This document shows, piece after piece, positions 1 to 17,318 of a stretch of 17,318 nucleotides of DNA. The DNA comes from a virus. Below the pieces are notes generated by a model. The model did not search any database and was not told the DNA's origin. It saw nothing but the letters and a program-made list of their open reading frames with translations. The number at the start of each line of letters is the position of its first letter. The first letter of the stretch is position 1. Location of the stretch: UHGV virus genome UHGV-0074612. One strand, written 5' to 3'. The position numbers were made by a program, and so were the translations under genes.

Positions 1-49
1 TTATCAATTTGTTGCAACGAACAGGTCACTATCAGTCAAAATAAAATCA
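1..49. other. attL arm: lambda-type attP P' arm with IHF H' site and Int arm-type sites; the core overlap lies just upstream of the window
   Basis: Exact IHF consensus ATCAAnnnnTTG at 3-14; arm-type Int site motifs AGGTCACTAT (23-32) and CAGTCAAAAT (33-42) directly 3' of the int stop; matches my memory of the lambda P' arm. Confidence 0.6.
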
Positions 50-1120
50 TTATTTGATTTCAATTTTGTCCCACTCCCTGCCTCTGTCATCACGATACTG
101 TGATGCCATGGTGTCCGACTTATGCCCGAGAAGATGTTGAGCAAACTTATCGCTTATCTGCTTCTCATAGAGTCTTGCAGACAAACTGCGCAACTCGTGA
201 AAGGTAGGCGGATCCCCTTCGAAGGAAAGACCTGATGCTTTTCGTGCGCGCATAAAATACCTTGATACTGTGCCGGATGAAAGCGGTTCGCGACGAGTAG
301 ATGCAATTATGGTTTCTCCGCCAAGAATCTCTTTGCATTTATCAAGTGTTTCCTTCATTGATATTCCGAGAGCATCAACATGCAATGCTGTTGGGATGGC
401 AATTTTTACGCCTGTTTTGCTTTGCTCGACATAAAGATATCCATCTACGATATCAGACCACTTCATTTCGCATAAATCACCAACTCGTTGCCCGGTAACA
501 ACAGCCAGTTCCATTGCAAGTCTGAGCCAACATGGTGATGATTCTGCTGCTTGATAAATTTTCAGGTATTCGTCAGCCGTAAGTCTTGATCTCCTTACCT
601 CTGATTTTGCTGCGCGAGTGGCAGCGACAGGGTTTGTTGTTATATGGCCTTCAGCTATTGCCTCTCGGAATGCATCGCTCAGTGTTGATCTGATTAACTT
701 GGCTGACGCCGCCTTGCCCTCGTCTATGTATCCATTGAGCATTGCCGCAATTTCTTTTGTGGTGATGTCTTCAAGTGGAGCATCAGGCAGACCCCTCCTT
801 ATTGCTTTAATTTTGCTCATGTAATTTATGAGTGTCTTCTGCTTGATTCCTCTGCTGGCCAGGATTTTTTCGTAGCGATCAAGCCATGAATGTAACGTAA
901 CGGAATTATCACTGTTGATTCTCGCTGTCAGAGGCTTGTGTTTGTGTCCTGAAAATAACTCAATGTTGGCCTGTATAGCTTCAGTGATTGCGATTCGCCT
1001 GTCTCGGCCTAATCCAAACTCTTTACCCGTCCTTGGGTCCCTGTAGCAGTAATATCCATTGTTTCTTATATAAAGGTTAGGGGGTAAATCCCGGCGCTCA
1101 TGACTTCGCCTTCTTCCCAT
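50..1120 (-). CDS. int: Tyrosine integrase, phage lambda Int type
   Basis: 356-aa ORF; N-terminus MGRRRSHERRDLPPNLYIRNNGYYCYRDPRTGKEFGLG and C-terminus match lambda Int as I recall it; adjacent to P' arm; overlaps xis as in lambda. Confidence 0.97.
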   Translation of the reverse strand: MGRRRSHERRDLPPNLYIRNNGYYCYRDPRTGKEFGLGRDRRIAITEAIQANIELFSGHKHKPLTARINSDNSVTLHSWLDRYEKILASRGIKQKTLINYMSKIKAIRRGLPDAPLEDITTKEIAAMLNGYIDEGKAASAKLIRSTLSDAFREAIAEGHITTNPVAATRAAKSEVRRSRLTADEYLKIYQAAESSPCWLRLAMELAVVTGQRVGDLCEMKWSDIVDGYLYVEQSKTGVKIAIPTALHVDALGISMKETLDKCKEILGGETIIASTRREPLSSGTVSRYFMRARKASGLSFEGDPPTFHELRSLSARLYEKQISDKFAQHLLGHKSDTMASQYRDDRGREWDKIEIK

Positions 1121-1316
1121 TTCTGATCCTCTTCAAAAGGCTACCTGTTACTGGTCGATTTAAGTCAACCTTTACCGCTGATTCGTGGAACAGATACTTT
1201 CTTCCATCCTTAACCGGAGGAGGGAATATCCTGCACTCGCGTACCCATCGACGAACTGTTTCAAGGCTTCTTGGGCGTCGCTGGCGTGCGTTCCACTCCT
1301 GAAGTGTCAAGTACAT
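1098..1316 (-). CDS. xis: Excisionase Xis
   Basis: 72-aa ORF MYLTLQEWNARQRRPRSLETVRRWVRECRIFPPP, lambda Xis-like; its 3' end overlaps the int start by 23 nt. Confidence 0.93.
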   Translation of the reverse strand: MYLTLQEWNARQRRPRSLETVRRWVRECRIFPPPVKDGRKYLFHESAVKVDLNRPVTGSLLKRIRNGKKAKS

Positions 1317-1343
1317 CGCAAAGTCTCCGCAATTACACGCAAG

Positions 1344-1363
1344 AAAAAACCGCCATCAGGCGG
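1344..1363 (-). terminator. Possible intrinsic terminator on the minus strand upstream of xis
   Basis: 5-bp GC stem CCGCC/GGCGG (1350-1354/1359-1363) with ATCA loop, followed on the minus strand by T6 (plus-strand A-run 1344-1349). The stem is short. Confidence 0.3.
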
Positions 1364-1429
1364 CTTGGTGTTCTTTCAGTTCTTCAATTCGAATATTGGT
1401 TACATTGTTTTCATATATGAATAAATAAA

Positions 1430-1609
1430 TTAGCTTTTTTCGTTGCCTTCGCGTTCTTTATTAATTTTGACAAACTTGTTTTTACCACGCTCTCCAAATG
1501 CGTCTTTAGAGTCGTTGTATCCGCAATCGCAGCACACATAATCATCAGACCATCCACGCATTGTTTTTTCTTTTGCAATATTTCCAGAACCGCATTTTGG
1601 ACAAGACAT
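1430..1609 (-). CDS. Small C4 zinc-ribbon protein (59 aa; early-left accessory gene)
   Basis: Track ORF 1430..1642 begins at TTG; an internal ATG at 1609 is preceded by GGAGG with a 7-nt spacer. Product MSCPKCGSGN...CCDCGYND carries CxxC...CxxC. Confidence 0.6.
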   Translation of the reverse strand: MSCPKCGSGNIAKEKTMRGWSDDYVCCDCGYNDSKDAFGERGKNKFVKINKEREGNEKS

Positions 1610-1908
1610 ATCACTACCTCCAAAGCATGAGAGAGATGACAACGTAACATTGATTGGAGATTAACAATAGATTGCTGATGTAAAAGATATGTATAAGCTT
1701 AGCTATCAAAGAGGAGGTTCTGGTAGTTGCATCCAGTCGGTTACATTGCGACTCTGTGTTTCGAAAAATTCATCACCATTGCGGACAATATCGAAAAACT
1801 CTCCGTCTCGATATTGCACATAAAGAACGAATGCGCCATCACATAAAATAATTACGTGCTGACCATCATCTGGCATTAGCTCACTACAGCTTATCCAACC
1901 ATCCGGAG

Positions 1909-2352
1909 TTACGGAGAGTTGCCGGGTTCTTTAATGTGCAAACGAGGCTCACCATCTTTTGGTTCAGGCCACTGGCGCTCCATGTTGATCTTCAATTTAT
2001 TTTCCATAGCAGCGGTAATTTCAGCATCACTGATACCAGCACGGCGCTGTGCATCCCACAACAGGAACTGCATATCAGCCCACTCGCTGAGATCGTCAGG
2101 TTCGGCTGCGGCTTCCAGAGCCTCTTTTGAGAGGTGTTTCAGTGGACCAATGGGGCCAACGCAGCCAAATGTGGAGTCAGACCATTTGGCATGCTCGTGG
2201 CGAACCCGCTCGCGTTCCAGTGAGGCGAGAGCGATTTTAAATGCTGTAAGCATGTGTGCTTGATCGTTGTCGAGTCCGAATGGCATTTCATCTCGTGCTG
2301 ACTCAATACTGGTAATCGTATTTTGTAGCCATTCCATGGTAAAAGTGCTCAT
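1909..2352 (-). CDS. Hypothetical early-left protein (147 aa)
   Basis: ATG overlaps the stop of the upstream gene (ATGA at 2349-2352), indicating translational coupling in the leftward operon. No confident family assignment. Confidence 0.6.
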   Translation of the reverse strand: MSTFTMEWLQNTITSIESARDEMPFGLDNDQAHMLTAFKIALASLERERVRHEHAKWSDSTFGCVGPIGPLKHLSKEALEAAAEPDDLSEWADMQFLLWDAQRRAGISDAEITAAMENKLKINMERQWPEPKDGEPRLHIKEPGNSP

Positions 2353-2720
2353 CGTAAAATATCCTCTATACTGGTAAGCCCTTCATTATTTAGCCAGATC
2401 ATTGCGTCATCCGGCAACTTGCTGTCTGGTTTTGCGTTTTTGAGAGAGGAACTCAGTCGCTTAATCCACATTGTCAGCTCAGTAATGCGCCTGTGTTTGC
2501 CTTCCAGCTCAACGCGCAGCCTCCCTACCGTTAGTGCAATATCCTCGTTCTCCTTGTCGCGGCGTTTGACGTATTGCTGGTTTCTTTCCCGTTCATCCAG
2601 CAGTGCCAGCACAATCGATGGTGTTACCAGCTCATGGAAAAGGTCCGCGTCAAATCCCCAGTTGTCATGCATTGCCTGCTCTGCCGCTTCACGCAGTGCC
2701 TGAGAGTTAATTTCGCTCAC
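2349..2720 (-). CDS. Ead/Ea22-like protein (123 aa)
   Basis: N-terminus MSEINSQALREAAEQAMHDNWGFDADLFHELVTPSIV resembles the Ead/Ea22 family N-terminus from memory; start overlaps the stop of the upstream gene. Confidence 0.7.
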   Translation of the reverse strand: MSEINSQALREAAEQAMHDNWGFDADLFHELVTPSIVLALLDERERNQQYVKRRDKENEDIALTVGRLRVELEGKHRRITELTMWIKRLSSSLKNAKPDSKLPDDAMIWLNNEGLTSIEDILR

Positions 2721-2938
2721 TTCGAACCTCTCTGTTTACTGATAAGCTCCAGATCTTCCTGGCAACTTGCACAAGTCCGACAACCCTGAACGGCCAGGCG
2801 TCTTCGCTCATCTATGGGATCGCCACACTCACAACAATGAGTGGCAGATATAGCCTGGTGGTTCAGGCGGCGCATTTTTATTGCTGTGTTGCGCTGTAAT
2901 TCTTCAATTTCTGATGCTGAATCAATGATGTCTGCCAT
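2717..2938 (-). CDS. TraR/DksA-family C4 zinc-finger protein (73 aa)
   Basis: C-terminal CxxC(x17)CxxC: CCECGDPIDERRRLAVQGCRTCASC, typical of TraR/DksA-like zinc fingers. Confidence 0.75.
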   Translation of the reverse strand: MADIIDSASEIEELQRNTAIKMRRLNHQAISATHCCECGDPIDERRRLAVQGCRTCASCQEDLELISKQRGSK

Positions 2939-3036
2939 CTTCCATTAATCCCTGAATTGTTGGTTAATACGCTTGAGGGTGAATGCGAATAATAAAAAAG
3001 GAGCCTGTAGCTCCCTGATGATTTTGCTTTTCATAT

Positions 3037-3318
3037 TCACCGTTCCTTAAAGACGCCGTTTAACATGCCGATCGCCAGGCTTAAATGAGTCGGTGTGAAT
3101 CCCATCAGCGTTACCGTTTCGCGGTGCTTCTTCAGTACGCTACGGCAAATGTCATCGACGTTTTTATCCGGAAACTGCTGTCTGGCTTTTTTGATTTCAG
3201 AATTAGCCTGACGGGCAATACTGCGAAGGGCGTTTTCTTGCTGAGGTGTCACTGAACAAGTCCCATGTCGGCAAGCATAAGCACACAGAATATGAAGCCC
3301 GCTGCCAGAAAAATGCAT
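3037..3318 (-). CDS. Hypothetical ORF (93 aa); doubtful
   Basis: Open frame only; no recognisable Shine-Dalgarno ahead of the ATG at 3318; overlaps the coupled small ORF 3249..3332 in another frame. Confidence 0.35.
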   Translation of the reverse strand: MHFSGSGLHILCAYACRHGTCSVTPQQENALRSIARQANSEIKKARQQFPDKNVDDICRSVLKKHRETVTLMGFTPTHLSLAIGMLNGVFKER

Positions 3319-3332
3319 TCAGTGGTTGTCAT
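3249..3332 (-). CDS. Candidate 27-aa hydrophobic peptide MTTTECIFLAAGFIFCVLMLADMGLVQ
   Basis: Its ATG overlaps the TGA of the orf63-like gene (ATGA at 3329-3332); uninterrupted hydrophobic core. Not in the ORF track because it is under 60 aa. Confidence 0.3.
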   Translation of the reverse strand: MTTTECIFLAAGFIFCVLMLADMGLVQ

Positions 3333-3520
3333 ACCTGGTCTCTCTCATCTGCTTCTGCTTTCGCCACCATCATTTCCAGCTTTTGTGAAAGGGATGCGGC
3401 TAACGTATGAAATTCTTCGTCTGTTTCTACTGGTATTGGCACAAACCTGATTCCAATTTGAGCAAGGCTATGTGCCATCTCGATACTCGTTCTTAACTCA
3501 ACAGGAGATGCTTTGTGCAT
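3329..3520 (-). CDS. Lambda orf63-like small protein (63 aa)
   Basis: Size and position immediately downstream of the orf60a-like gene and exo; sequence feels lambda-like from memory. Confidence 0.7.
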   Translation of the reverse strand: MHKASPVELRTSIEMAHSLAQIGIRFVPIPVETDEEFHTLAASLSQKLEMMVAKAEADERDQV

Positions 3521-3681
3521 ATAGCCCCTCGTTTATTATTTATCTCCTCAGCCAGCCGCTGTGCTTTCAGTGGATTTCGGATAACAGAAAGGCCGGGAAA
3601 TACCCAGCCTCGCTTTGTAACGGAGTAGACGAAAGTGATTGCGCCTACCCGGATATTATCGTGAGGATGCTTCATCGCCAT
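3493..3681 (-). CDS. Lambda orf60a-like small protein (60-62 aa)
   Basis: Directly downstream of exo in the leftward operon; alternative start at Met3 (3675) would give 60 aa. Confidence 0.7.
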
Positions 3682-4352
3682 TGCTCCCCAAATACAAAAC
3701 CAATTTCAGCCAGTGCCTCGTCCATTTTTTCGATGAACTCTGGCACCATTTCGTCAAAACCAGCCATGTATTTTTCATCCCGCTCGACCACGACATAATG
3801 CAGGCCTTCACGCTTCATACGTGGGTCATAGTTGGCAAAGTACCAGGCATCTTTTCGCGTCGCCCACATGCTGAATTGCACCTGGGCCATGTAAGCTGAT
3901 TTTATTGCCTCGAAACCACCGAGCCGGAATTTCATGAAATCCCGGGAGGTAAACGGGCATTTCAGTTCAAGGCCGTTGCCGTCACTGCATAAACCATCGG
4001 GAGAGCAGGCGGTGCGCATACTTTCGTCGCGATAGATGATCGGGGATTCAATAACATTTACGCCGGAAGTGAACTCAAACAGGGTTCTGGCGTCGTTCTC
4101 GTACTGTTTTCCCCAGGCCAGCGCTTTAGCGTTAACTTCCGGAGCCACACCGGTGCAAACCTCAGCCAGCAGGGTGTGGAAGTAGGACATTTTCATGTCA
4201 GGCCACTTCTTTCCTGATCGGGGCTTTGCTATCACGTTGTGAACTTCTGAAGCGGTGATGACGCCGAGCCGTAATTTGTGCCATGCATCATCCCCCTGTT
4301 CGACAGCTCTCACGTCGATCCCGGTACGCTGCAGGATAATGTCCGGTGTCAT
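3672..4352 (-). CDS. exo: Lambda exonuclease (Red alpha)
   Basis: 226-aa [43 protein letters not shown]..., lambda Exo length and sequence as I recall; start overlaps the bet stop. Confidence 0.97.
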
Positions 4353-5134
4353 GCTGCCACCTTCTGCTCAGTGGCTTTCTGTTTCAGGAATCCGAGAGCT
4401 TTCACTGCTTCGACCTGTGTCAGTTCTGACGATGCGCGAATGTCGCGGCGAAATATCTGGGAACAGAGCGGCAATAAGTCGTCATCCCATGTTTTATCCA
4501 GGGCAATCAGCAGAGTGTTAATCTCCTGCATGGTTTCATCGTTAACCGGAGTGATGTCGCGTTCCGGCTGACGTTCTGCAGTGTATGCGGTATTTTCGAC
4601 AATGCGCTCGGCTTCATCCTTGTCATAGATACCAGCAAATCCGAAGGCCAGACGGGCACACTGAATCATGGCTTTATGACGTAACATCCGTTTGGGATGC
4701 GACTGCCACGGCCCCGTGATTTCTCTGCCTTCGCGGGTTTTGAATGGTTCGCGGCGGCATTCATCCATCCACTCGGTAACGCAGATCGGATGATTACGGT
4801 CCTTGCGGTAAATCCGGCATGTGCAGGATTCATTGTCCTGCTCAAAGTCCATGCCATCAAACTGCTGGTTTTCATTGATGATACGGGACCAGCCATCAAC
4901 GCCCACCACCGGAACGATGCCGTTCTGCTTGTCAGGGAAGGCGTAAATTTCTTTCGTCCACGGATTAAGGCCGTACTGGTTGGCGACGATCAACAATGCG
5001 ATGAACTGCGCATCGCTGGCATCGCCTTTAAATGCCGTCTGGCGAAGAGTGGTGATCAGTTCCTGTGGGTCGACAGAATCCATGCCGACACGTTCAGCCA
5101 GCTTCCCAGCCAGCGTTGCGAGTGCTGTACTCAT
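4349..5134 (-). CDS. bet: Single-strand annealing protein Bet (Red beta)
   Basis: 261-aa [53 protein letters not shown]..., lambda Bet length and sequence as I recall. Confidence 0.97.
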
Positions 5135-5139
5135 CCGTT

Positions 5140-5208
5140 TTATACCTCTGAATCAATATCAACCTGGTGGTGAGCAATGGTTTCAACCATGTACCGGATG
5201 TGTTCTGC
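5140..5208 (-). pseudogene. gam: 3'-terminal remnant of gam (last 22 codons plus stop)
   Basis: Minus strand encodes AEHIRYMVETIAHHQVDIDSEV then stop, 5 nt upstream of the bet ATG; matches the lambda Gam C-terminus from memory. Upstream codons (NVS...) diverge and a stop occurs at 5221-5223. Confidence 0.7.
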
Positions 5209-5228
5209 TACATTACTGAGCTAATAAC

Positions 5229-5260
5229 AGGCCTGCTGGTAATCGCAGGCCTTTTTATTT
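5229..5260 (+). terminator. Rho-independent terminator, lambda tR2-like
   Basis: 8-bp stem AGGCCTGC/GCAGGCCT (5229-5236/5245-5252), 8-nt loop, then TTTTTATTT; located just upstream of ninB as tR2 is in lambda. Confidence 0.75.
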
Positions 5261-5276
5261 GGGGGAGAGGGAAGTC

Positions 5277-5717
5277 ATGAAAAAACTAACCTTTGAAATT
5301 CGATCTCCAGCACATCAGCAAAACGCTATTCACGCAGTACAGCAAATCCTTCCAGACCCAACCAAACCAATCGTAGTAACCATTCAGGAACGCAACCGCA
5401 GCTTAGACCAAAACAGGAAGCTATGGGCCTGCTTAGGTGACGTCTCTCGTCAGGTTGAATGGCATGGTCGCTGGCTGGATGCAGAAAGCTGGAAGTGTGT
5501 GTTTACCGCAGCATTAAAGCAGCAGGATGTTGTTCCTAACCTTGCCGGGAATGGCTTTGTGGTAATAGGCCAGTCAACCAGCAGGATGCGTGTAGGCGAA
5601 TTTGCGGAGCTATTAGAGCTTATACAGGCATTCGGTACAGAGCGTGGCGTTAAGTGGTCAGACGAAGCGAGACTGGCTCTGGAGTGGAAAGCGAGATGGG
5701 GAGATCGGGCTGCATGA
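5277..5717 (+). CDS. ninB: NinB (Orf family recombination mediator)
   Basis: Track ORF 5259..5717; ATG at 5277 gives MKKLTFEIRSPAHQQNAIHAVQQILPDP..., lambda NinB-like, preceded by GGAGAGGG. Confidence 0.93.
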   Translation: MKKLTFEIRSPAHQQNAIHAVQQILPDPTKPIVVTIQERNRSLDQNRKLWACLGDVSRQVEWHGRWLDAESWKCVFTAALKQQDVVPNLAGNGFVVIGQSTSRMRVGEFAELLELIQAFGTERGVKWSDEARLALEWKARWGDRAA

Positions 5718-6241
5718 CTATCAAATCAAATACGCCAGCACACGACAAGGACTGCTGGCAAACGCCGCTTTGGCTTTTTGATGCACTGGATATTGAGTTT
5801 GGATTCTGGCTGGATTCGGCAGCGAGCGACAAAAATGCTCTGTGTGCTCACTGGCTAACTGAGGCCGACGACGCGCTCAATTCTGAGTGGGTAAGCCACG
5901 GTGCAATCTGGAATAACCCACCGTACAGCAATATCAGGCCGTGGGTGGAAAAAGCCGCTGAGCAGTGCATACAACAGCGACAGACGGTAGTTATGCTTGT
6001 GCCAGAGGATATGTCAGTCGGATGGTTCAGCAAGGCTCTGGAGAGTGTCGACGAAGTTCGCATTATCACTGATGGACGGATTAATTTTATCGAACCATCG
6101 ACAGGGCTGGAGAAGAAGGGAAACAGCAAAGGCTCCATGCTGCTGATTTGGCGACCGTTCATCAGTCCTCGACGGATGTTTACTACCGTATCCAAAGCGG
6201 CATTGATGGCGATCGGGCAGGGCGTCAGGAGGGCGGCATGA
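5714..6241 (+). CDS. Phage N6-adenine DNA methyltransferase (orphan, no cognate nuclease seen)
   Basis: Start ATGA overlaps the ninB stop; product [26 protein letters not shown]... with NPPY catalytic motif (WNNPPYS). No restriction endonuclease candidate nearby. Confidence 0.85.
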
Positions 6242-6414
6242 GGCGACAGCGACGAAGTTTCACCGACATCATCTGCGAAAACTGCAAATACCTTCCAACG
6301 AAACGCTCCAGAAATAAACGCAAGCCAATCCCAAAAGAATCTGACGTAAAAACCTTCAATTACACAGCTCACCTGTGGGATATCCGGTGGCTAAGATATC
6401 GTGCGAGGAAATGA
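6238..6414 (+). CDS. ninE: NinE
   Basis: Internal ATG at 6238 of track ORF 6148..6414 gives [34 protein letters not shown]..., lambda NinE-like; ATGA overlap with the methyltransferase stop. Confidence 0.8.
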
Positions 6415-6758
6415 CAATGGATTATTCACAGTTAAGTGATTTTGAAATTAACAGAATGGTAGGAGACATAATTTTTAAAGGCCTTTGGGCAAGTAAACCG
6501 GAAACATCAGGGAATAACACCAACAAATGGTATTACGGAAATGCTGATACAACTTTTGAGCCATTAAATCATTTGCCTGACTACTGCAATGATCCGAGCG
6601 CTTCATGGCCGATTATTGAGAAATACAGGATTTCTATCTTAGACCAGTTAACTGAATGGTGTGTGGATGCAAAAGGCGTAAGCCCAATATTTGATACCAG
6701 ACCTCTCCGCGCCGCCATGATTGTCTTTCTCCTGATGCAGGAGGCCAATAATGCTTAG
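6411..6758 (+). CDS. Hypothetical nin-region protein (about 114 aa)
   Basis: Track ORF 6375..6758; in-frame ATGs at 6411 (ATGA overlap with ninE stop) and 6417, with GAGGAA upstream. Confidence 0.65.
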
Positions 6759-6945
6759 CCCATCTCAATCCCTTCAATACCTGAAAGGAAGCATAGAGCG
6801 GGCTTCAATGTGCACAGAGTGGATTCTATCTAGGTTTAGCGCATACAGAAGATTGCCGGTAAAGGGCATGCCAAGCAAGTCGATGCTGCATATGCAAAAG
6901 AATGCGCGCTGGAAGGTATGGCGAGAACACAGGTTATCTGGCTGA
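6751..6945 (+). CDS. Hypothetical small nin-region protein (64 aa)
   Basis: ATG at 6751 preceded by GGAGG with about a 6-nt spacer; fills the gap before rusA. Confidence 0.45.
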
Positions 6946-6964
6946 AAGAGGGGGTTATTAAGGC

Positions 6965-7327
6965 GTGAATACCTACAGCATCACATTACCCTGGCCTCCG
7001 AGCAATAACCGCTACTACCGGCATAATCGCGGGCGCACGCACATCAGCGCAGAAGGGCAGGCATACCGTGATAACGTCGCCCGAATCATTAAAAACGCAA
7101 TGCTGGATATCGGCCTGGCTATGCCTGTGAAAATCCGCATTGAGTGCCACATGCCGGATCGCCGTCGCCGTGACCTGGATAATCTGCAAAAAGCCGCTTT
7201 TGACGCACTCACTAAAGCAGGTTTCTGGCTGGATGATGCTCAGGTCGTTGATTACCGCGTTGTGAAGATGCCTGTTACCAAAGGTGGGAGGCTGGAACTG
7301 ACCATCACCGAAATGGGGAATGAATGA
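6965..7327 (+). CDS. rusA: Holliday-junction resolvase RusA
   Basis: 120-aa [28 protein letters not shown]...; RusA sequence as I recall; GTG start with GAGGGGG upstream. Confidence 0.95.
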
Positions 7328-7464
7328 TGTTTGAGTTTAATATGGCAGAACTTCTTCGCCACCGCTGGGGGCGTCTGCGCTTATATCGTTTCCCCGGTTC
7401 TGTTTTGACCGATTACCGAATACTGAAGAATTACGCCAAAACCCTGACAGGAGCAGGAGTATGA
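7324..7464 (+). CDS. ylcG: Small protein, YlcG-like (46 aa)
   Basis: ATGA overlap with the rusA stop; translation [46 protein letters not shown] matches my recollection of DLP12 YlcG. Under the track size cutoff. Confidence 0.5.
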
Positions 7465-7549: not shown

Positions 7550-7933
7550 ATGCGTGATATTCAGATGGTTCTTGAGCGTTGGGGAGCGTGGGCGGCTAAT
7601 AATCATGAAGATGTGACCTGGTCGTCCATTGCCGCCGGTTTTAAGGGATTAATTCCTTCAAAAGTAAAATCTCGCCCGCAATGTTGTGACGATGACGCGA
7701 TGATCATTTGCGGGTGCATGGCCCGCCTGAAAAAGAACAACAGCGATTTGCACGATTTATTAGTAGATTATTATATAGTCGGTATGACATTCATGTCACT
7801 GGCAGGTAAGCATTGCTGCTCTGATGGTTATATCGGGAAAAGGTTACAAAAGGCTGAGGGCATAATTGAAGGGATGTTAATGGCATTAGATATCCGGTTA
7901 GAGATGGATATCGTTGTTAATAACTCTAATTAA
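7550..7933 (+). CDS. Late-gene antiterminator Q (QuuD-like)
   Basis: Track ORF 7535..7933; ATG at 7550 after GGAGTAAG gives [24 protein letters not shown]... with a Cys-rich zinc-binding region, resembling the DLP12 QuuD antiterminator. Confidence 0.88.
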
Positions 7934-7955: not shown

Positions 7956-7984
7956 TTATTAAAAATGGGGCGTTGAAACGCCCC
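7956..7984 (-). terminator. Intrinsic terminator for the porin transcript (minus strand)
   Basis: GC-rich 7-bp stem GGGGCGT/ACGCCCC (7967-7973/7978-7984) with tetraloop, followed on the minus strand by ATTTTTAATAAC. Confidence 0.6.
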
Positions 7985-9632: not shown

Positions 9633-9666
9633 AAACCCGCCGTCGAGCGGGTTTTTCCATTTTTTG
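9633..9666 (+). terminator. Rho-independent terminator inside the porin-holin intergenic region (tR'-like)
   Basis: 8-bp stem AAACCCGC/GCGGGTTT (9633-9640/9647-9654), 6-nt loop, then TTCCATTTTTTG. No plus-strand gene ends upstream of it. Confidence 0.7.
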
Positions 9667-9777: not shown

Positions 9778-9993
9778 ATGAAATCCATGGATAAGTTAAC
9801 AACGGGTGTCGCCTATGGCACCTCAGCAGGTAGTGCCGGGTACTGGTTTTTACAGCTGCTCGATAAAGTCACGCCCTCACAGTGGGCAGCAATAGGTGTG
9901 CTGGGTAGCCTGGTATTTGGCCTGCTGACGTACCTGACAAACCTTTATTTCAAGATTAAAGAAGATAAGCGCAAGGCTGCGAGAGGTGAATAA
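9778..9993 (+). CDS. Phage-21-type pinholin (S21/EssD-like) with dual start motif
   Basis: 71-aa [29 protein letters not shown]...; Met1/Met4 dual start, two TMDs, charged C-terminus; GAGGTGG upstream. Confidence 0.92.
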
Positions 9994-10490
9994 TGCCTCC
10001 ATCATTACGAAAAGCCGTTGCTGCTGCTATTGGTGGCGGAGCAATTGCTATAGCATCAGTGTTAATCACTGGCCCAAGTGGTAACGATGGTCTGGAAGGT
10101 GTCAGCTACATACCATACAAAGATATTGTTGGTGTATGGACTGTATGTCACGGGCATACAGGAAAAGACATCATGCTCGGTAAAACGTATACCAAAGCAG
10201 AATGCAAAGCCCTCCTGAATAAAGACCTTGCCACGGTCGCCAGACAAATTAACCCGTACATAAAAGTTGATATACCGGAAACAACGCGCGGCGCTCTTTA
10301 CTCGTTCGTTTACAACGTGGGCGCTGGCAATTTCAGAACATCGACACTTCTTCGCAAAATAAACCAGGGCGATATCAAAGGCGCATGTGATCAGCTACGT
10401 CGCTGGACATATGCTGGCGGTAAGCAATGGAAAGGTCTCATGACTCGTCGTGAGATTGAGCGTGAAATCTGTTTGTGGGGTCAGCAATGA
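9993..10490 (+). CDS. SAR endolysin (phage-21 R / RrrD-like lysozyme)
   Basis: 165-aa ORF with N-terminal Gly/Ala-rich signal-anchor-release segment [20 protein letters not shown] followed by a lysozyme domain; start overlaps the holin stop. Confidence 0.92.
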
Positions 10491-10945
10491 ACAGAGTAAC
10501 CGCGATTATCTCCGCTCTGGTTATCTGCATCATCGTCTGCCTGTCATGGGCTGTTAATCATTACCGTGATAACGCCATTACCTACAAAGCCCAGCGCGAC
10601 AAAAATGCCAGAGAACTGGAGAAGGCGAACGCCACCATCGCTGACATGCGGAAGCGTCAACGTGATGTAGCAGAACTCGACGCAAGATACACAAAGGAGC
10701 TTGCTGATGCTAACGCGACTATCGAAAGTCTCCGTGCTGATGTTTCTGCTGGGCGTAAGCGCCTGCAAGTCGCCGCCACCTGTGCAAAGTCAACGACCGG
10801 AGCCAGCGGCATGGGCGATGGAGAAAGCCCAGGACTTACAGCAGATGCTGAACTCAATTATTACCGTCTCCGAAGTGGAATCGACAAGATAACCGCGCAG
10901 GTTAACTACCTGCAGGAATACATCAGGACGCAATGCCTGAAATAA
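10487..10945 (+). CDS. Spanin inner-membrane subunit Rz
   Basis: ATG at 10487 (ATGA overlap with endolysin stop) gives [21 protein letters not shown]..., an N-terminal TMD followed by a periplasmic coiled-coil-like region. Confidence 0.88.
10701..10892 (+). CDS. Spanin outer-membrane lipoprotein Rz1, embedded in Rz in the +1 frame
   Basis: 63-aa ORF wholly inside Rz; signal peptide with lipobox VSAC followed by a proline-rich segment [13 protein letters not shown]. Confidence 0.8.
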
Positions 10946-11006: not shown

Positions 11007-11031
11007 ATGCGTACCGCAACGCATGTTTTTT
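11007..11031 (+). terminator. Lysis-operon terminator 2
   Basis: 6-bp stem ATGCGT/ACGCAT, 6-nt loop, followed by GTTTTTT. Confidence 0.6.
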
Positions 11032-11146
11032 ACACCGAACCTGCCCCTTTGGAATGGGCCTTTGAGGATACCAGTTAGTGCTGGCGAGCCTCGGTGGGCT
11101 GGTTTCCTGTGCGGCAAAGGTTCATTTCAAAGAGTAGGTACACGCT

Positions 11147-11644
11147 ATGAAATCATTAACCCTCTTCAATCAACCAATTCGTATCGGTGAAGATGGCATG
11201 ATCTGCCTCACTGATATGTGGAAAGCCAGTGGTAAAAGTGAATCTGAATCGCCTTACCACTACCTGCGAAACAAGCAGACCAAAGAGTTCTTAGCCGAGC
11301 TGGAGAAAAACCACGAATCTGTGGTTTTTACTGAGCGCGGTGTACACGGTGGAACATATGGCGGGAAGTTTGTTGCTTACGATTATGCGGCTTGGTTAAA
11401 CCCCGGGTTCAAGTACGCGGCCTATAAAGTCCTCGATGACTACTTCACCGGAGAACTTCAGCATCGCAACAGCTTAAGTGCGCAGCTCAACATGAAATGT
11501 CATGAGTTTGACCAGAAGAAAGACATGGCGAGCTTCTGCGGACAAGGGCTGGCAGCATGGCGCTATACGAAGCCAGTGTTGGTCGCTGAGATTAACTCCC
11601 TGGCTAACCAGCTGCAGATTACGATCCCCGGGCTTCCGGGATGA
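11147..11644 (+). CDS. KilA-N/Bro-N-like domain protein (165 aa)
   Basis: N-terminal FNQPIRIGEDGMICLTDMWKASGK fits the KilA-N pattern (F..IR...DG..........A.G) by eye. Confidence 0.65.
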   Translation: MKSLTLFNQPIRIGEDGMICLTDMWKASGKSESESPYHYLRNKQTKEFLAELEKNHESVVFTERGVHGGTYGGKFVAYDYAAWLNPGFKYAAYKVLDDYFTGELQHRNSLSAQLNMKCHEFDQKKDMASFCGQGLAAWRYTKPVLVAEINSLANQLQITIPGLPG

Positions 11645-11910
11645 GTGATCGTGTCATTGAATGCGCCTCCAGAGCGGGGCGCGACTTCTCAGAGTTCATG
11701 AAAGGCGAGAAGGGCATGATGGAAGCATTGGCCTCGGTGGATGAGTTTGGCGAGCAGCTGCGCCTCAACGGCTGTGTCAATCATCACTTTGTTAGCTACA
11801 TGATGCGGAACTCGATCATGCAGGCATTCATGGACATGGCAAAAGCCGAGAGGAAAGAAGAGCGCCGGCGTAAGCGAGCGGAAGCAAAAGCAAAAGCAAA
11901 AGTGAAGTAG
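11641..11910 (+). CDS. Hypothetical protein (89 aa) with Lys/Arg/Ala/Glu-rich C-terminal tail
   Basis: ATGA overlap with the stop of the KilA-N-like gene; C-terminus AKAERKEERRRKRAEAKAKAKVK. Confidence 0.6.
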   Translation: MSDRVIECASRAGRDFSEFMKGEKGMMEALASVDEFGEQLRLNGCVNHHFVSYMMRNSIMQAFMDMAKAERKEERRRKRAEAKAKAKVK

Positions 11911-11947
11911 CCATTACAAAGCCCATTTACGGGTGGGCTTGATAATG
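11911..11947. repeat. Hairpin-containing element, copy A
   Basis: CCATTACAAAGCCCATTTACGGGTGGGCTTGATAATG immediately after the TAG of the 89-aa gene; stem AAGCCCA/TGGGCTT (11919-11925/11934-11940). Confidence 0.5.
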
Positions 11948-12134
11948 AAACCGGAATTTATTCTGGGCCACCAGTTAACGGCAGTACCACGAAACAACCC
12001 AAGCCAGTAAGTGGGGAAATAACACCGGCAGCCACTGAAAGATGAACCTCCTGCCTTATGGCAAAAAAGATTCTTTGTGGTGGCGGACTGATGGAAAGAC
12101 ATCCTAATTTCAGCCAAACATTGAAGGAGTTGTT

Positions 12135-12206
12135 ATGTCAGCAGAAGGTTTCAATAACCCATCAAAATTCCGGGATGAGTGGGATAGCAGCGTAAAGAGT
12201 AAGTGA
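12135..12206 (+). CDS. Candidate 23-aa ORF MSAEGFNNPSKFRDEWDSSVKSK
   Basis: AAGGAG Shine-Dalgarno 6 nt upstream of the ATG; stop immediately precedes copy B of the hairpin element. Confidence 0.3.
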   Translation: MSAEGFNNPSKFRDEWDSSVKSK

Positions 12207-12207
12207 T

Positions 12208-12249
12208 GCCATCACAAAAGCCATTCCCTACAGAGTGGCTTTGATAATG
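12208..12249. repeat. Hairpin-containing element, copy B
   Basis: GCCATCACAAAAGCCATTCCCTACAGAGTGGCTTTGATAATG; shares the CCAT(Y)ACAAA(A)GCC ... GGCTT(T)GATAATG framework with copy A, with base changes that still pair in the stem. Confidence 0.5.
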
Positions 12250-12264
12250 GCTTATACCCTACAC

Positions 12265-12290
12265 GGGATAACTTAACTGATATCCCTTTT
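12265..12290 (+). terminator. Possible intrinsic terminator
   Basis: Stem GGGATA/TATCCC (12265-12270/12281-12286), 10-nt loop, then TTTT. Confidence 0.4.
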
Positions 12291-12498
12291 AAAGGATAAA
12301 GGCATTCAAGCCTGACACATCATGCGCTGTATCGTCGCCGTATTCCCGTATTAACAGAGACCGTAGCCCGACGGGGAACTCCTTCTGCGCGAGTGTGCGG
12401 GAATAATCAAAAACGATGCACACCGGGGTTACCGGGTACACATATTTCATCATGCCAGCGAGTCCGGTTCTGGCACGGAAGAAACCGGACGTTATGAT

Positions 12499-12909
12499 TT
12501 AGTGCGGAAATATTTGTGTAGTGTTCTGAATGTTCTCAGTAAAGAGTAATGAATTATCAAAGGTATAGTAATACCTTTTGTTTTCGTGGATATTTGTAAT
12601 CCATCTGAAAACCCCTGCTGTAGCAAGATTTTTCCTGTATTCGTAAAATGATAACTCTCCTGATTTGAATCCTTTTAAGGTGGCTTCTATAAGGCATTTA
12701 TTTTTTGAAAATCTTACATTTACAACCTTACCCTGTCCTTTTATTAAAACCGTATTATCGTTTTCAAGAACAAGATGAATATTCTCTGTGGCTAAATAGT
12801 AAATGTAATGTGAGACATTGTGACGTTTTAGTTCAGAATAAAACCAGTGATAGTTTAAATTATTTCGCACTTTATCGAATATTTGTTTAAAAATGGCAAC
12901 CTGAGCCAT
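12499..12909 (-). CDS. YbcV-like (DUF1398-like) protein, 136 aa, AT-rich
   Basis: Track ORF 12499..12924; ATG at 12909 preceded by GAAGGT gives [17 protein letters not shown]..., matching my recollection of DLP12 YbcV and its 136-aa length. Gene is markedly AT-rich relative to its flanks. Confidence 0.75.
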
Positions 12910-12966
12910 TGTAGTACCTTCCATGTGATATGAGGGGGCGTAGTCTGCACGATTATCTAAATTGCT

Positions 12967-13200
12967 TCAATCTGGTCTAACCTGTTTTCTGAGCAATTCA
13001 GTAATGTCACTCTTTTCTTTGTTTGCTTCAGGCGAAACTCTTTTTTCTGAGCACAGTCTCCGGCGGCAGGCTTCAATGACCCAGGCTGAGAAATTCCCGG
13101 ACCCTTTTTGAACAAGAGCGATGTTAATTTGTTCAATCATTTGGTTAGGAAAGCGGATGTTGCGGGTTGTTGTTCTGCGGGTTCTGTTCTTCGTTGACAT
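12967..13200 (-). CDS. YlcI-like small protein with putative ribbon-helix-helix fold (77 aa)
   Basis: Co-directional and 42 bp upstream of the YbcV-like gene; basic N-terminus then RNIRFPNQMIEQINIALVQKGSGNFSAWVIEACRRRL, which reads like a strand-helix-helix unit. Confidence 0.6.
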   Translation of the reverse strand: MSTKNRTRRTTTRNIRFPNQMIEQINIALVQKGSGNFSAWVIEACRRRLCSEKRVSPEANKEKSDITELLRKQVRPD

Positions 13201-13379
13201 GAGGTTGCCCCGTATTCAGTGTCGCTGATTTGTATTGTCTGAAGTTGTTTTTACGTTAAGTTGATGCAGATCAATTAATACGATACCTGCGTCATAATTG
13301 ATTATTTGACGTGGTTTGATGGCGTAGATGCACGTTGTGACATGTAGATGATAATTATTATCATTTTGCGGGTCCTTTC

Positions 13380-13445
13380 CGGCGATCCGACAGGTTACGG
13401 GGCGGAAGGCGCGCGGGTTTTCGCTATTTATGAAAATTTTCCGGG
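13380..13445. other. cos site region with cosN-like 12-mer at 13400-13411
   Basis: GCGATCCGACAGGTTACG + GGGCGGAAGGCG + CGCGGGTTTTCGCTATTTATGAAAATTTTCCGG; both flanks match the lambda right and left ends as I recall, but the 12-mer differs from lambda GGGCGGCGACCT at its last six positions. Confidence 0.65.
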
Positions 13446-13508
13446 GAAAATCATGTCGGTACTTCTCGAACATAACTATTTGTTTTTTCTAATATCGAAT
13501 CCGTAAAA

Positions 13509-13563
13509 GGTCCGACATGAAAACGCCTAAAAAAGTCATTTTCGGGCACTTTCATGTCGGACC
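13509..13563. repeat. Perfect 14-bp inverted repeat with 27-bp A-rich spacer, in cosB position
   Basis: GGTCCGACATGAAA (13509-13522) and TTTCATGTCGGACC (13550-13563); sits between the cosN-like site and the Nu1-like start codon at 13588. Confidence 0.7.
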
Positions 13564-13587
13564 CTGTGTTTGTTGTTAGACTGTTTC

Positions 13588-13704
13588 ATGAAGGTTAATA
13601 AAAAGAAACTTGCCGAAATTTTCAACGTGGATCCGCGAACGATTGAACGCTGGCAGTCTCAGGGACTCCCTTGCGTCTCCGGAGGTGGCAGCGGGCCATC
13701 ATGA
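13588..13704 (+). pseudogene. Terminase small subunit (Nu1/gp1-like), N-terminal 38-codon stub
   Basis: [38 protein letters not shown] then stop; resembles the Nu1 N-terminal DNA-binding segment (lambda MEVNKKQLADIFGASIRTIQNWQEQGMPVLRGGG). The frame ends where terminase A homology begins. Confidence 0.75.
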
Positions 13705-14570
13705 ATGCGATGGGCAGTGACTACATCCGCGAGGTGAATGTGGTGAAGTCTGCCCGTGTTGGTTATTCCAAAATGCTGCTGGGTGTTTATGCCTACTTCA
13801 TAGAGCATAAGCAGCGCAACACCCTTATCTGGTTGCCGACGGATGGTGATGCCGAGAACTTTATGAAAACCCACGTTGAGCCGACTATTCGTGATATTCC
13901 GTCGCTGCTGGCGCTGGCCCCGTGGTATGGCAAAAAGCACCGGGATAACACGCTCACCATGAAGCGTTTCACTAATGGGCGTGGCTTCTGGTGCCTGGGC
14001 GGTAAAGCGGCAAAAAACTACCGTGAAAAGTCGGTGGATGTGGCGGGTTATGATGAACTTGCTGCTTTTGATGATGATATTGAACAGGAAGGCTCTCCGA
14101 CGTTCCTGGGTGACAAGCGTATTGAAGGCTCGGTCTGGCCAAAGTCCATCCGTGGCTCCACGCCCAAAGTGAGAGGCACCTGCCAGATTGAGCGTGCAGC
14201 CAGTGAATCCCCGCATTTTATGCGTTTTCATGTTGCCTGCCCGCACTGCGGGGAGGAGCAGTATCTTAAATTTGGCGACAAAGAGACGCCGTTTGGCCTC
14301 AAATGGACGCCGGATGACCCCTCCAGCGTGTTTTATCTCTGCGAGCATAATGCCTGCGTCATCCGCCAGCAGGAGCTGGACTTTACTGATGCCCGTTATA
14401 TCTGCGAAAAGACCGGGATCTGGACCCGTGATGGCATTCTCTGGTTTTCGTCATCCGGTGAAGAGATTGAGCCGCCGGACAGTGTGACCTTTCACATCTG
14501 GACGGCGTACAGCCCGTTCACCACCTGGGTGCAGATTGTCAAAGACTGGATGAAGACGAAAGGGGATACC
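13689..14570 (+). pseudogene. Terminase large subunit A, internal fragment (about residues 58-350 of lambda gpA)
   Basis: Track ORF 13671..14630; [50 protein letters not shown]... through ...[14 protein letters not shown] is lambda gpA as I recall. It lacks the gpA N-terminus and C-terminal half; the frame then runs into J-derived sequence out of frame. Confidence 0.85.
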
Positions 14571-14571
14571 C

Positions 14572-15883
14572 GAACACGGCACTGGTCGGCGTGCAGGTGG
14601 ACTCGGAGCAGTTCGGCAGCCAGCAGGTGAGCCGTAATTATCATCTGCGCGGGCGCATTCTGCAGGTGCCGTCGAACTATAACCCGCAGACGCGGCAATA
14701 CAGCGGTATCTGGGATGGAACGTTTAAGCCAGCATACAGCAACAACATGGCCTGGTGTCTGTGGGATATGCTGACCCATCCGCGCTACGGCATGGGGAAA
14801 CGTCTTGGTGCAGCAGATGTGGATAAATGGACGCTGTATGTCATCGGCCAGTACTGCGACCAGTTGGTACCGAATGGTTTTGGCGGCACGGAGCCGCGCA
14901 TCACCTGTAATGCCTGGCTGACCACACAGCGTAAGGCGTGGGATGTGCTCAGTGATTTCTGCTCGGCGATGCGCTGTATGCCGGTATGGAACGGGCAGAC
15001 GCTGACGTTCGTGCAGGACCGACCATCAGATAAGGTGTGGACCTATAACCGCAGTAATGTGGTGATGCCGGATGATGGCGCGCCGTTCCGCTACAGCTTC
15101 AGCGCCCTGAAGGACCGCCATAATGCCGTTGAGGTGAACTGGATTGACCCGAACAACGGCTGGGAGACGGCGACAGAGCTTGTTGAAGATACGCAGGCCA
15201 TTGCCCGTTACGGTCGTAATGTCACGAAGATGGATGCCTTTGGCTGTACCAGCCGGGGGCAGGCACACCGCGCCGGGCTGTGGCTGATTAAAACGGAACT
15301 GCTGGAGACGCAGACCGTGGATTTCAGCGTGGGTGCTGAAGGGCTTCGCCATGTACCGGGCGATGTCATTGAAATCTGCGATGATGACTATGCCGGTATC
15401 AGCACCGGTGGTCGCGTGCTGGCGGTGAACAGCCAGACCCGGACGCTGACGCTCGACCGTGAAATCACGCTGCCATCTTCCGGCACCACGCTGATAAGCC
15501 TGGTTGACGGGCAGGGGAGTCCGGTCAGCGTGGAGGTTCAGTCCGTCACCGACGGACTTAAGGTGAAAGTGAACCGGGTTCCTGACGGCGTTGCAGAATA
15601 CAGTGTGTGGGGGCTGAAGTTGCCGACGTTGCGTCAGCGCCTGTTCCGCTGTGTGAGTATCCGTGAGAACGATGACGGCACGTATGCCATCACTGCCGTG
15701 CAGCATGTACCGGAAAAAGAAGCCATCGTGGATAACGGGGCGCACTTTGACGGCGACCAGAGCGGCACGGTGAATGATGTCACGCCGCCAGCGGTGCAGC
15801 ACCTGACTGCCGAAGTCACCGCAGACAGCGGGGAATATCAGGTGCTGGCGCGCTGGGACACGCCGAAGGTGGTGAAGGGGGTG
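14572..15883 (+). pseudogene. Tail tip protein J, internal fragment
   Basis: Track ORF 14591..16687 begins at a GTG inside J-like sequence ([28 protein letters not shown]...). J homology runs to ...[12 protein letters not shown]; the J N-terminal third and C-terminal receptor-binding region are absent. Confidence 0.85.
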
Positions 15884-16687
15884 AAGGCACATTACAGAAA
15901 TGGAGGTCTGTTCTACCGTTCCTCAAGAGATGGCTATGGTTTTGAGGAAGACTGGGCAGAAGTTTATACCTCGAAAAATCTTCCACCAGAAAGCTACCCA
16001 GTCGGCGCACCAATCCCGTGGCCATCAGATACCGTTCCGTCTGGTTATGCCCTGATGCAGGGGCAGACTTTTGACAAATCTGCATACCCGAAACTTGCAG
16101 CCGCTTATCCGTCAGGCGTGATCCCTGATATGCGTGGCTGGACGATTAAGGGCAAACCTGCCAGTGGTCGCGCCGTATTGTCTCAGGAACAGGACGGCAT
16201 TAAATCGCACACCCACAGCGCCAGCGCATCCAGTACGGATTTGGGGACGAAAACCACATCGTCGTTTGATTACGGAACCAAATCCACGAATAACACCGGG
16301 GCGCATACCCATAGTATTAGCGGGACCGCAAATAGTGCCGGCGCGCACCAACACAAGAGTTCCGGTGCATTTGGTGGCACGAACACGAGCATTTTCCCTA
16401 ATGGTTATACCGCGATTTCAAATCCAAGCGCGGGGATTATGAGCACAACAAGCGGTAGTGGTCAGACTCGTAATGCAGGGAAGACATCATCAGATGGTGC
16501 TCATACCCACTCGCTGTCCGGCACTGCTGCAAGCGCAGGCGCACATGCACATACTGTCGGTATTGGTGCTCATACGCACTCCGTTGCGATTGGCTCACAT
16601 GGACACACCATCACCGTTAACGCTGCGGGTAACGCGGAAAACACCGTCAAAAACATCGCATTTAACTATATTGTGAGGCTTGCATAA
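15884..16687 (+). pseudogene. Side tail fibre (Stf-like) C-terminal region, fused in frame to the J fragment
   Basis: ...[45 protein letters not shown]... with repeated Gly/His boxes ([30 protein letters not shown]) and C-terminus [11 protein letters not shown], typical of lambda Stf and T4 gp37-type fibre tips. Confidence 0.8.
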
Positions 16688-17268
16688 TGGCATTCAGAAT
16701 GAGTGAACAAGCACGGACCATAAAAATTTATAATCTGCTGGCCGGAACTAATGAATTTATTGGTGAAGGTGACGCATATATTCCGCCTCATACAGGTCTG
16801 CCAGCAAACAGTACCGATATTGCACCACCAGATATTCCGGCAGGCTTCGTGGCTGTTTTCAACAGTGATGAGGCATCGTGGCATCTCGTTGAAGACCATC
16901 GGGGGAAAACGGTTTATGACGTAGCGTCAGGGGACGAGTTATTTATTTCTGAACTCGGTCCGTTACCGGAAAATGTTACCTGGTTATCGCCGGGAGGGGA
17001 ATATCAGAAGTGGAACGGCACAGCCTGGGTGAAGGATACGGAAGCAGAAAAACTGTTCCGGATCCGGGAGGCGGAAGAAACAAAAAACAGCCTGATGCAG
17101 ATAGCCAGTGAGCATATAGCGCCGCTTCAGGATGCTGTGGATCTGGAGATCGCAACGGAGGAAGAAACCTTGTTGCTGGAAGCCTGGAAAAAGTATCGGG
17201 TGTTGCTGAACCGTGTTGATACATCAACTGCACCGGATATTGAATGGCCAGTAGCACCTATAGGGTAA
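16687..17268 (+). CDS. tfa: Tail fibre assembly protein Tfa
   Basis: 193-aa [42 protein letters not shown]...; start overlaps the stop of the upstream tail-fibre ORF; lambda Tfa-like length and sequence as I recall. Confidence 0.9.
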
Positions 17269-17318
17269 ATTCGTAATGATTACCTAAATACGTTATTCTT
17301 TTGTTAAAAAAGTGATTT

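Follow-up and report, generated by a model that had tools for sequence, protein, structure and literature searches.

Architecture of the remnant and its four deletion joins

The virus genome UHGV-0074612, a stretch of 17,318 nucleotides which at its full length is referred to as the window hereafter, holds most of a lambdoid prophage remnant residing at att-lambda, between ybhC and ybhB-bioA, in the E. coli chromosome. The best intact relative found by megablast against phage records is Escherichia phage ev099 (NC_049953, Radostvirus), a viable temperate phage of 47.2 kb which covers 80% of the window at 97.7% identity. A local BLAST map of the window against ev099 and lambda, with the prophages of ET220 and TW10590 as further references, reveals collinearity with all four which is interrupted by four joins. 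Compared to the intact relatives, 6,901 bp, 587 bp, 14,378 bp and 4,879 bp are missing at joins A, B, C and D, respectively, amounting to 26,745 bp in total. Integrated at an att site, collinear with viable phages and deprived of essential functions, the element is a defective lambdoid prophage. From attL to attR it measures ~20.65 kb, which together with the lost sequence leads to an ancestor of ~47.4 kb, i.e. of the size of ev099. An earlier note on this DNA had described a deletion derivative with three or four deletions; mapping against the intact relatives fixes their number at four.

Join A (window 5208/5209; ev099 32612 to 39514, lambda 32884 to 40575) leads from gam codon 75 to a position 5 nt past the ren stop codon. 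The 6,901 bp lost here contained most of gam as well as kil, cIII, N, PL, cI, PR, cro, cII, O with ori, P and ren, leaving a gam' remnant of the last ~24 codons (residues 75-98; 5140-5208, minus strand) which ends at the join. At join B (13688/13689), with the TW10590 prophage as reference, nu1 codon ~31 is connected to codon 56 of the terminase gene A. The nu1' fragment preceding it (13588-13688, plus strand) retains ~31-33 codons from the start of a gene for a non-lambda terminase small subunit. Next comes A' (13689-14578, plus strand), a fragment of the terminase large subunit covering codons 56-353 and extending to join C (~14575-14578), where A codon 353 is joined to J codon 212. Every head and tail-shaft gene has disappeared at this position, and the reading of A' crosses the join out of frame. 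Join D (15882-15884) finally brings J codon ~651 next to the C-terminal part of stf, the deletion having taken away lom along with the C-terminus of J and the N-terminus of stf. The resulting J'::'stf open reading frame (ORF) of 698 aa (14591-16687, plus strand) is an in-frame fusion of J codons 212-~651 with the Stf C-terminal part and matches the Pfam families Phage-tail_3, Ig_J and Collar. It has been deposited in ENA as "Host specificity protein J of prophage" (SPX35658.1) and is uncalled in PGAP-annotated copies of the element.

The microhomology at the joins amounts to 0-3 bp only, which identifies them as illegitimate deletions and neither as homologous exchanges nor as assembler joins. 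Seven of the eight deletion endpoints lie within coding sequence, and the leftover fragments gam', nu1', A', J' and stf' make up ~3 kb of the window. Given the ev099 coding density of 0.874, at least seven coding endpoints out of eight are expected with a probability of 0.73. The endpoints are thus random-looking, and the deletions follow no gene or module boundary. Accordingly, the description of the deletions as "clean" is correct insofar as the joins are simple, but not in the sense that genes were spared. Three of the four deletions fall inside the morphogenesis operon, where they have left nested debris; this is the pattern of stepwise neutral erosion of an operon that was already dead. 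That immunity, replication, head and tail-shaft functions have been lost, as had also been proposed, is borne out by the map since deletion A covers immunity and replication while deletion C covers head and tail shaft. Neither window nor flanks contain cI, cro, N, O, P or the genes from W through I; nu1 is for the most part missing, and A, J and stf are missing in part.

Integration site and flanks

An exact 28-mer spanning join A, used as a probe, yielded a single match in viral_contigs, an IMG/VR contig, and none in genome_contigs or metagenome_contigs. The sister contig IMGVR_UViG_3300039332_000035 extends the window on the left by 1,369 bp consisting of host ybhC and, subsequently, an intact attL which runs into window base 1. 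Its left flank ends with ...GCTTTTTTATACTAAGTTGGCATTATAAAAAAGCATTGC, directly followed by window base 1, and attL reads GCTTTTTTATACTAA plus the P' arm. Positions 1-49 of the window accordingly represent the P' arm of attL, the 15-bp att core being located 24-38 bp to the left of window position 1 (equivalent to lambda 27763) and adjoining ybhC. To the right of tfa, the sister loci contain a ~3.3 kb b-region, then attR, then ybhB-bioABFCD. This b-region, 97.6-98.6% identical to that of ev099, carries a gene for an AraC-family regulator and two insertion sequence (IS) fragments. The earlier note had considered that the missing modules might be situated just outside the window on the same element. 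Sought in both flanks of the sister copies, they are not there; attL with ybhC on one side and the b-region, attR and ybhB-bio on the other are found instead.

The attR core reads ACTTTTTTATACTAA in place of GCTTTTTTATACTAA in all copies, the difference lying on the P-arm side (CAACTTT compared to CAGCTTT in lambda and ev099; position 16010 in copy L006, 16815 in L012, 16817 in L013 and 14267 in L014). A defect at attR was considered and rejected, as CAACTTT is common to all copies and fits the consensus core-type Int site; for the latter reason the variant is probably harmless. The length annotated for the AraC-family gene beside the remnant varies between copies (231, 247 or 308 aa; L012, L014 and L015 among them), and in copy L006 (14877-14959) its 3' end contains ~83 bp which are extra compared to ev099 and the other copies.

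Retained genes

Gene intactness was assessed by tblastn of ev099 and ET220 proteins. Full length at 97-100% aa identity are int, xis, exo, bet, ninB, dam, ninE, ninX, ninF, rusA, ylcG, Q and the genes of porin, holin, endolysin, DUF1398 protein and YnfO; Rz (87.5%) and tfa (95.3%) are full length as well. The statement of the earlier note that recombination genes, methyltransferase, Q, porin, lysis cassette and tfa remain intact therefore holds.

The left arm, transcribed from the minus strand, begins with the lambda-type integrase gene int (50-1120; 356 aa, 99.4% aa identity to ev099 Int over 356/356 residues) and the excisionase gene xis (1098-1316; 72 aa, 72/72 residues at 98.6%), both intact and together 99.3% identical in nucleotide sequence to lambda 27763-29165. 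The early-left accessory genes follow (1433-3675), coding for an Eag/Lar-like zinc finger protein, a dATP/dGTP pyrophosphohydrolase, an Ea22-like protein, a TraR/DksA protein and small DUF1382 and DUF1317 ORFs. Part of this region (1403-2677) is a mosaic segment which is present in the ET220 prophage and not in ev099. Within it, a 1-nt deletion at 1911/1912 relative to ET220 splits the 215-aa pyrophosphohydrolase into ORFs of 147 aa and 56 aa; the enzyme may still work because its Pfam domain is located wholly within the 147-aa part. The arm is completed by exo, encoding lambda exonuclease (3672-4352; 226 aa, 226/226 residues at 97.8%), and bet, encoding a RecT-family annealase (4349-5134; 261 aa, Pfam RecT), which are intact, too.

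Beyond join A a tR2-type intrinsic terminator (5229-5252, plus strand) is found directly upstream of ninB. The nin region (5277-7464, plus strand) comprises ninB/orf, a Dam-type N6-adenine methyltransferase gene, ninE, ninX, ninF, rusA and ylcG, all of them intact at 97.5-100% aa identity (Pfam NinB, Dam, NinX, RusA and YlcG). It is followed by an intact Q antiterminator gene of the DLP12 QuuD type (7550-7933, plus strand; 127 aa). The Q21 structures 6JNX and 6P18 are matched by this protein only distantly (E = 1e-7 over 80 residues; 127 aa versus 162 aa). Judged by its sequence, Q is of the QuuD type and just distantly related to Q21. The convergently oriented gene for an NmpC/OmpD-like porin (8122-9204, minus strand; 360 aa, Pfam Porin_1) is an intact moron whose product is 100% identical in aa sequence to the ev099 porin. 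A GC-rich hairpin, GGGGCGTTTCAACGCCCC, is present between Q and the porin gene at 7967-7984 with A/T runs on both sides; it is likely a bidirectional terminator isolating the porin moron.

The lysis cassette (9778-10945, plus strand), preceded by a tR'-like intrinsic terminator (9633-9654, plus strand) ~125 nt upstream of the holin gene, encodes an S21-type holin of 71 aa, a signal-anchor-release (SAR) endolysin of 165 aa and Rz of 152 aa. The holin matches Pfam Phage_holin_2_1. The endolysin is identical to RrrD (PDB 4ZPU) in 164 of 165 residues and matches 3HDE/3HDF, the SAR endolysin of phage 21, along its entire length with a score nearly that of RrrD (E = 2.6e-111). The Rz1 ORF, embedded in Rz (10701-10892), is intact and contains the lipobox VSAC. 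Likeness to phage 21 was tested through these PDB sequences, the matches listed including no phage 21 genome record. By sequence, the lysis genes are truly 21/DLP12-type. At least 80% of the Q-porin-lysis module is present in 35 phage records, making it a standard module of lambdoid phages. The mosaic proposed earlier, lambda-like at the ends and phage-21/DLP12-like from Q to the lysis genes, can consequently be retained with regard to the lambda-type ends, the DLP12-type Q and the 21/DLP12-type lysis genes, but Q is not Q21.

Comparison with known relatives

Neither a single phage record nor any of the 5,426 complete E. coli genomes contains at least 80% of the window in one place. Prophages with the b-region of the remnant at att-lambda are present in 176 complete genomes. 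With ev099 the remnant is collinear over everything it has retained, at 95.6-99.1% nucleotide identity and with most proteins at 97-100%, and both share the b-region with the AraC regulator and the IS fragments before attP. Unlike the remnant, ev099 holds the missing 26.7 kb, and three mosaic patches set the two apart (window 1403-2677, 11151-12209 and 13404-13688, the last containing cosB/nu1). The ev099 record NC_049953.1 begins, at positions 1-33, with TCGTCGGCAGCGTCAGATGTGTATAAGAGACAG where the cos end is expected. We take this to be the Nextera transposase adapter; it looks like library contamination, with the true cos end missing from the record.

The alignments to lambda and DLP12 suggested in the earlier note show collinear lambda blocks and DLP12-type rusA-Q-porin-lysis blocks. 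Identity to lambda amounts to 99.3% in int-xis, 97% in the ea-exo-bet region, 99.6% in ninB, 98.4% in A, 94.9% in J and 93.7% in tfa, and the attachment site is the same. In contrast, lambda possesses no homologue of the segment comprising dam, ninX, rusA, Q, porin, holin and endolysin, and its cosN, cosB and nu1 differ.

DLP12, inserted at argU of K-12, shows the order int-xis-exo' / ren'...nin-rusA-ylcG-quuD-nmpC-essD-rrrD-rzpD...ybcV-ylcI-cos-nohD-aaaD' / tfaD...AraC-type appY, which is also the architecture of the remnant. The nucleotide identity is 98% for rusA-ylcG-quuD and 92% for nmpC-essD-rrrD-rzpD, the AraC-family gene in the b-region of the remnant is 28% identical to AppY, and both elements are devoid of immunity and replication as well as of head and tail. 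They differ, however, in integrase and site, IntD at argU being opposed to a lambda-type Int at att-lambda with no nucleotide match to intD. Their deletion endpoints are independent, as DLP12 is cut within exo (exo'-ren') and has A codon ~103 fused to tfa. Decay has also gone further in DLP12, with IS3 and IS5 insertions and with xis, exo and nmpC as pseudogenes, whereas exo, bet, porin and the nu1-proximal cos are intact in the remnant, which shows three partial deletions in place of the single one of DLP12. By these alignments, the remnant carries the DLP12-type rusA-quuD-nmpC-essD-rrrD-rzpD module, but neither the integrase nor the site of DLP12.

Spread, variation and age

Probes of 200 bp across joins A, C and D found no match in the 5,426 complete E. 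coli genomes, and the best 12 matches of the join B probe in the same genomes all retain intact nu1-A. Hence, by whole-window and join probes, these genomes contain no carrier and no intermediate form. The same four joins are present in at least 10 independent assemblies originating from ENA, NCBI isolate drafts and JGI, with contigs of up to 1.34 Mb. The exact 698-aa J'::'stf protein occurs on many contigs, 15 of which were read, and the exact 309-aa A' fragment on 37 contigs (50 indexed blocks) from E. coli draft isolates, e.g. EFB8625712.1, and from human-gut metagenome assemblies; EFC3133854.1, HAH9129153.1 and HAW8161501.1 are further accessions of this fragment. The flanks formed by b-region and ybhB-bio are 99.96-100% identical among the copies, and such near-identical host flanks indicate one host clone. 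The comparison of the locus across strains, which the earlier note had suggested, thus reveals all four joins in the ten independent copies and a single near-identical clone. Vertical persistence across diverged host lineages, as would be expected of a domesticated element, is not seen.

Ten copies show 56 variable sites in 13.6 kb, most of which form tight clusters (in exo, ynfO, J and tfa), while ~8 are isolated single-nucleotide polymorphisms (SNPs). The clusters are located at window 3741-3897 (11 sites in exo, specific to the window), 12979-13112, 16905-16937 and 16986-17148 and at the L012 equivalents of 14779-14875 and 15307-15409. They look like gene conversion from other resident lambdoid prophages or like consensus mixing in metagenome assemblies. 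The ynfO patch of copies L007 and L016 includes a change from W to a stop codon.

The divergence amounts to ~2-4 x 10^-4 per site, which means that less than one inactivating point mutation is expected per copy. At so low a divergence intact genes are the neutral expectation, and there is no power to detect purifying selection. Although the isolated coding changes are mostly synonymous, this is equally true within the dead J'::'stf fragment; such a signal is therefore not readable as selection here and is attributable to conversion or chance. Converted with typical E. coli short-term rates, the divergence would correspond to an age on the order of centuries, a rough value since recombination patches obscure the SNP count.

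Transcriptional context of the retained genes

In lambda, transcription of int, xis, exo and bet starts at PL with the aid of N, the cII-dependent PI being an alternative for int, while the genes from ninB to Q are served by PR, with N allowing passage through tR2. PL, PR, N and cII were all lost in deletion A, and the tR2-type hairpin and ninB follow right after the join. A simple consensus scan of both strands, complemented by knowledge of lambda, revealed no promoter-like site around join A on either strand and none between join A and ninB; the scan, which gave 13 hits compared to 24.7 in shuffled sequence, also missed PR'. With these promoters and factors lost and a terminator in front of ninB, int/xis/exo/bet and ninB-rusA-Q are cut off from their only known promoters. 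If no Q is made, the tR'-like terminator 125 nt before the holin gene should put an end to late transcription. Judged from this arrangement, the retained recombination, Q and lysis genes are most likely silent passengers. A route to expression, which domestication would call for, thus seems to be absent for int/xis/exo/bet and for ninB-Q-lysis; morons with their own promoters stand outside this statement. Contributors to a host phenotype are plausible only among such own-promoter genes, i.e. those for the porin, the DUF1398 protein, YnfO, the KilA-N protein and the AraC regulator outside the window. Comparable silence is known from recET of Rac, which needs sbcA mutations for expression. The rusA gene of DLP12 is quiescent until IS2 or IS10 inserts upstream (PMC1636454).

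Origin of the remnant

We consider it highly probable that the element is a young grounded lambdoid prophage of one E. coli clone whose gene content results from a viability filter acting on deletions, together with too little time for decay. Its ancestor would have been a ~47.4-kb mosaic of the ev099 type in which lambda-type int/xis/red, terminase A, J, stf and tfa were combined with a DLP12/21-type rusA-Q-porin-lysis segment and a non-lambda cosB/nu1. From it, four illegitimate deletions removed 6.9, 0.59, 14.4 and 4.9 kb. Repressor loss would be survivable only if the killing functions were deleted or fell silent at the same time, and deletion A, in which cI was lost in one step and PL, PR, N, kil, cII, O and P went as well, would have achieved this. 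It would thereby have stranded the leftward int-xis-exo-bet and the rightward ninB-rusA-Q genes, and, with no Q being made, the lysis genes would have stayed behind tR'. Genes stranded in this manner would be harmless and invisible to selection. Once hit, the morphogenesis block (20 kb) would have presented the largest neutral target, suffering three nested deletions which left nu1', A' and J'::'stf as junk, while the remaining genes would be intact for want of decay time. Selection would, accordingly to this scheme, act on loss and not on what is kept, and the likeness to DLP12 would reflect convergence through the viability filter. Selection for some cargo, e.g. the porin or the AraC regulator, is possible.

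Several points weigh against this explanation. DLP12 independently lost the same two blocks and kept the set of int, nin-rusA-Q, porin, lysis genes and AraC-type regulator, an independent parallel which implies that the outcome is non-random at some level and that selection for some of the retained genes may have contributed. None of the major retained genes is damaged, and J' and 'stf are fused in frame. Some of the retained genes could be transcribed from weak or non-sigma-70 promoters, and the age estimate suffers from the recombination patches mentioned above.

The earlier note had favoured prophage domestication over random decay. On such a reading the host would keep exo, bet, ninB, rusA, the methyltransferase, Q-lysis and tfa for a benefit, e.g. 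recombinational repair, controlled autolysis in biofilms or restriction evasion, and selection would have shaped which blocks stayed. Indeed, all these genes are full length, DLP12 has independently kept the same set, and purifying selection on defective prophages is reported by Bobay et al. (2014). Incomplete prophages in general preferentially lose replication, packaging and release genes and are enriched in integrase and tail-fibre genes (PMC7744054), which can be quoted in favour of domestication as well. A pattern of loss and retention so generic is, however, explained equally well by selection against lethal or induction-competent products as by selection for the retained genes. Moreover, the native promoters and the antiterminator are gone, terminators precede ninB and the holin gene, the element is limited to a single clone and was found in none of the complete genomes, too few substitutions have accumulated after the deletions to reveal constraint, and junk fragments and a frameshifted gene are kept beside intact ones. 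Considering the random-like endpoints, the lost promoters, the single young clone and the generic loss pattern, the preference for domestication is not upheld, and we regard this explanation as unlikely. The loss of replication, packaging and structural genes and the retention of integrase, tail-fibre-related and cargo genes (PMC7744054) are features which the remnant shares with the defective prophages under purifying selection of Bobay, Touchon & Rocha (2014) and Khan, Burmeister & Wahl (2020); these studies are, in contrast, based on elements inherited vertically across diverged strains, while the remnant is restricted to one near-identical clone.

A helper-dependent mobile element of satellite or cosmid-like nature, excised and packaged, or rescued module by module, by a superinfecting lambdoid phage, is favoured by the intact int and xis, by both att sites and the complete cosN/cosB, kept together with Q, the lysis genes and a tail-fibre module, and by conversion patches that show ongoing exchange with other prophages; furthermore, a dimer of the 20.65-kb element (41.3 kb) would be within lambda packaging limits. 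Yet O, P and ori have been deleted, a primase, a replication gene and an origin are all lacking, nu1 and A are mere fragments, the cosB type needs a matching terminase, and all copies occupy a single chromosomal site in a single clone. The gene order is that of a full-length phage after deletion, without satellite-specific genes, and neither a replication module nor helper-interference or packaging-redirection genes as in satellites of the phage-inducible chromosomal island type were found in the window. We therefore hold mobility of this kind to be very improbable. Even slighter, indeed close to negligible, is the probability of a chimeric contig assembled from several co-resident lambdoid prophages. 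One sister copy is a metagenome-derived viral contig, and the median number of places matching the window is 7 per E. coli genome, which would favour such an artefact; the 0-3 bp of microhomology at the joins are, however, far below any assembler k-mer. Misassembly was rejected given this and the identical joins in the at least 10 independent assemblies.

Seen as a young grounded prophage, the remnant is an ordinary defective lambdoid prophage, notable solely for its capture very early after grounding and for the near-identical viable relative known. Its four joins, the viable ev099 and the old, convergent DLP12 together could serve to calibrate the pace and order of prophage grounding. Intact genes in a remnant provide no evidence of domestication unless age and transcriptional context have been checked. 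More speculatively, and with a rather small chance of being correct, lambdoid phages of the ev099/DLP12 type may repeatedly follow one selection-filtered "grounding pathway" whose end product is a stereotyped gene set (int, red/nin recombinases, rusA, Q, porin, 21-type lysis genes, tfa and an AraC-type regulator) that the host then uses in part. If this were true, the pathway would consist of one-step loss of PL-cI-PR-O-P plus head and tail loss, and the remnant would represent a very early snapshot of the process behind DLP12. Candidates for such use would be, e.g., the porin and the AraC regulator, but also the lysis cassette and the receptor-binding module formed by the in-frame J'::'Stf and Tfa.

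Cargo, cos region and tfa

The segment between the lysis cassette and cos (11147-13200) contains small cargo genes for a KilA-N/ORF11CD3 protein, orf89, orf54, a DUF1398 protein (YbcV-like) and a DUF3950 protein (YlcI/YnfO-like). A PADLOC scan of the cargo detected no defence system, just an orphan methyltransferase.

A cosN variant, GGGCGGAAGGCG, is located at 13400-13411 on the plus strand and is followed by a non-lambda cosB, the mosaic breakpoint lying exactly at cosN. Compared to GGGCGGCGACCT, the cosN of lambda, DLP12 and ET220, five of the 12 positions differ. The cosB (13412-13587), with the repeats CATGTCGG/CCGACATG, differs from that of lambda, too. Decay of cosN was considered and rejected: the identical cosN is present in the apparently intact TW10590 prophage, which identifies it as a natural variant. 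By these comparisons, the cosN/cosB/nu1 patch is of a third lineage, implying a lambdoid terminase lineage with different cohesive ends.

At the right end of the window, the tail-fibre assembly gene tfa (16687-17268, plus strand; 193 aa) is intact. An Rfam scan gave IS009 as its sole match, in full length at 17030-17228 inside tfa and with 221 bits compared to a gathering score of 117; this probably reflects the origin of that candidate small RNA family from prophage tfa.

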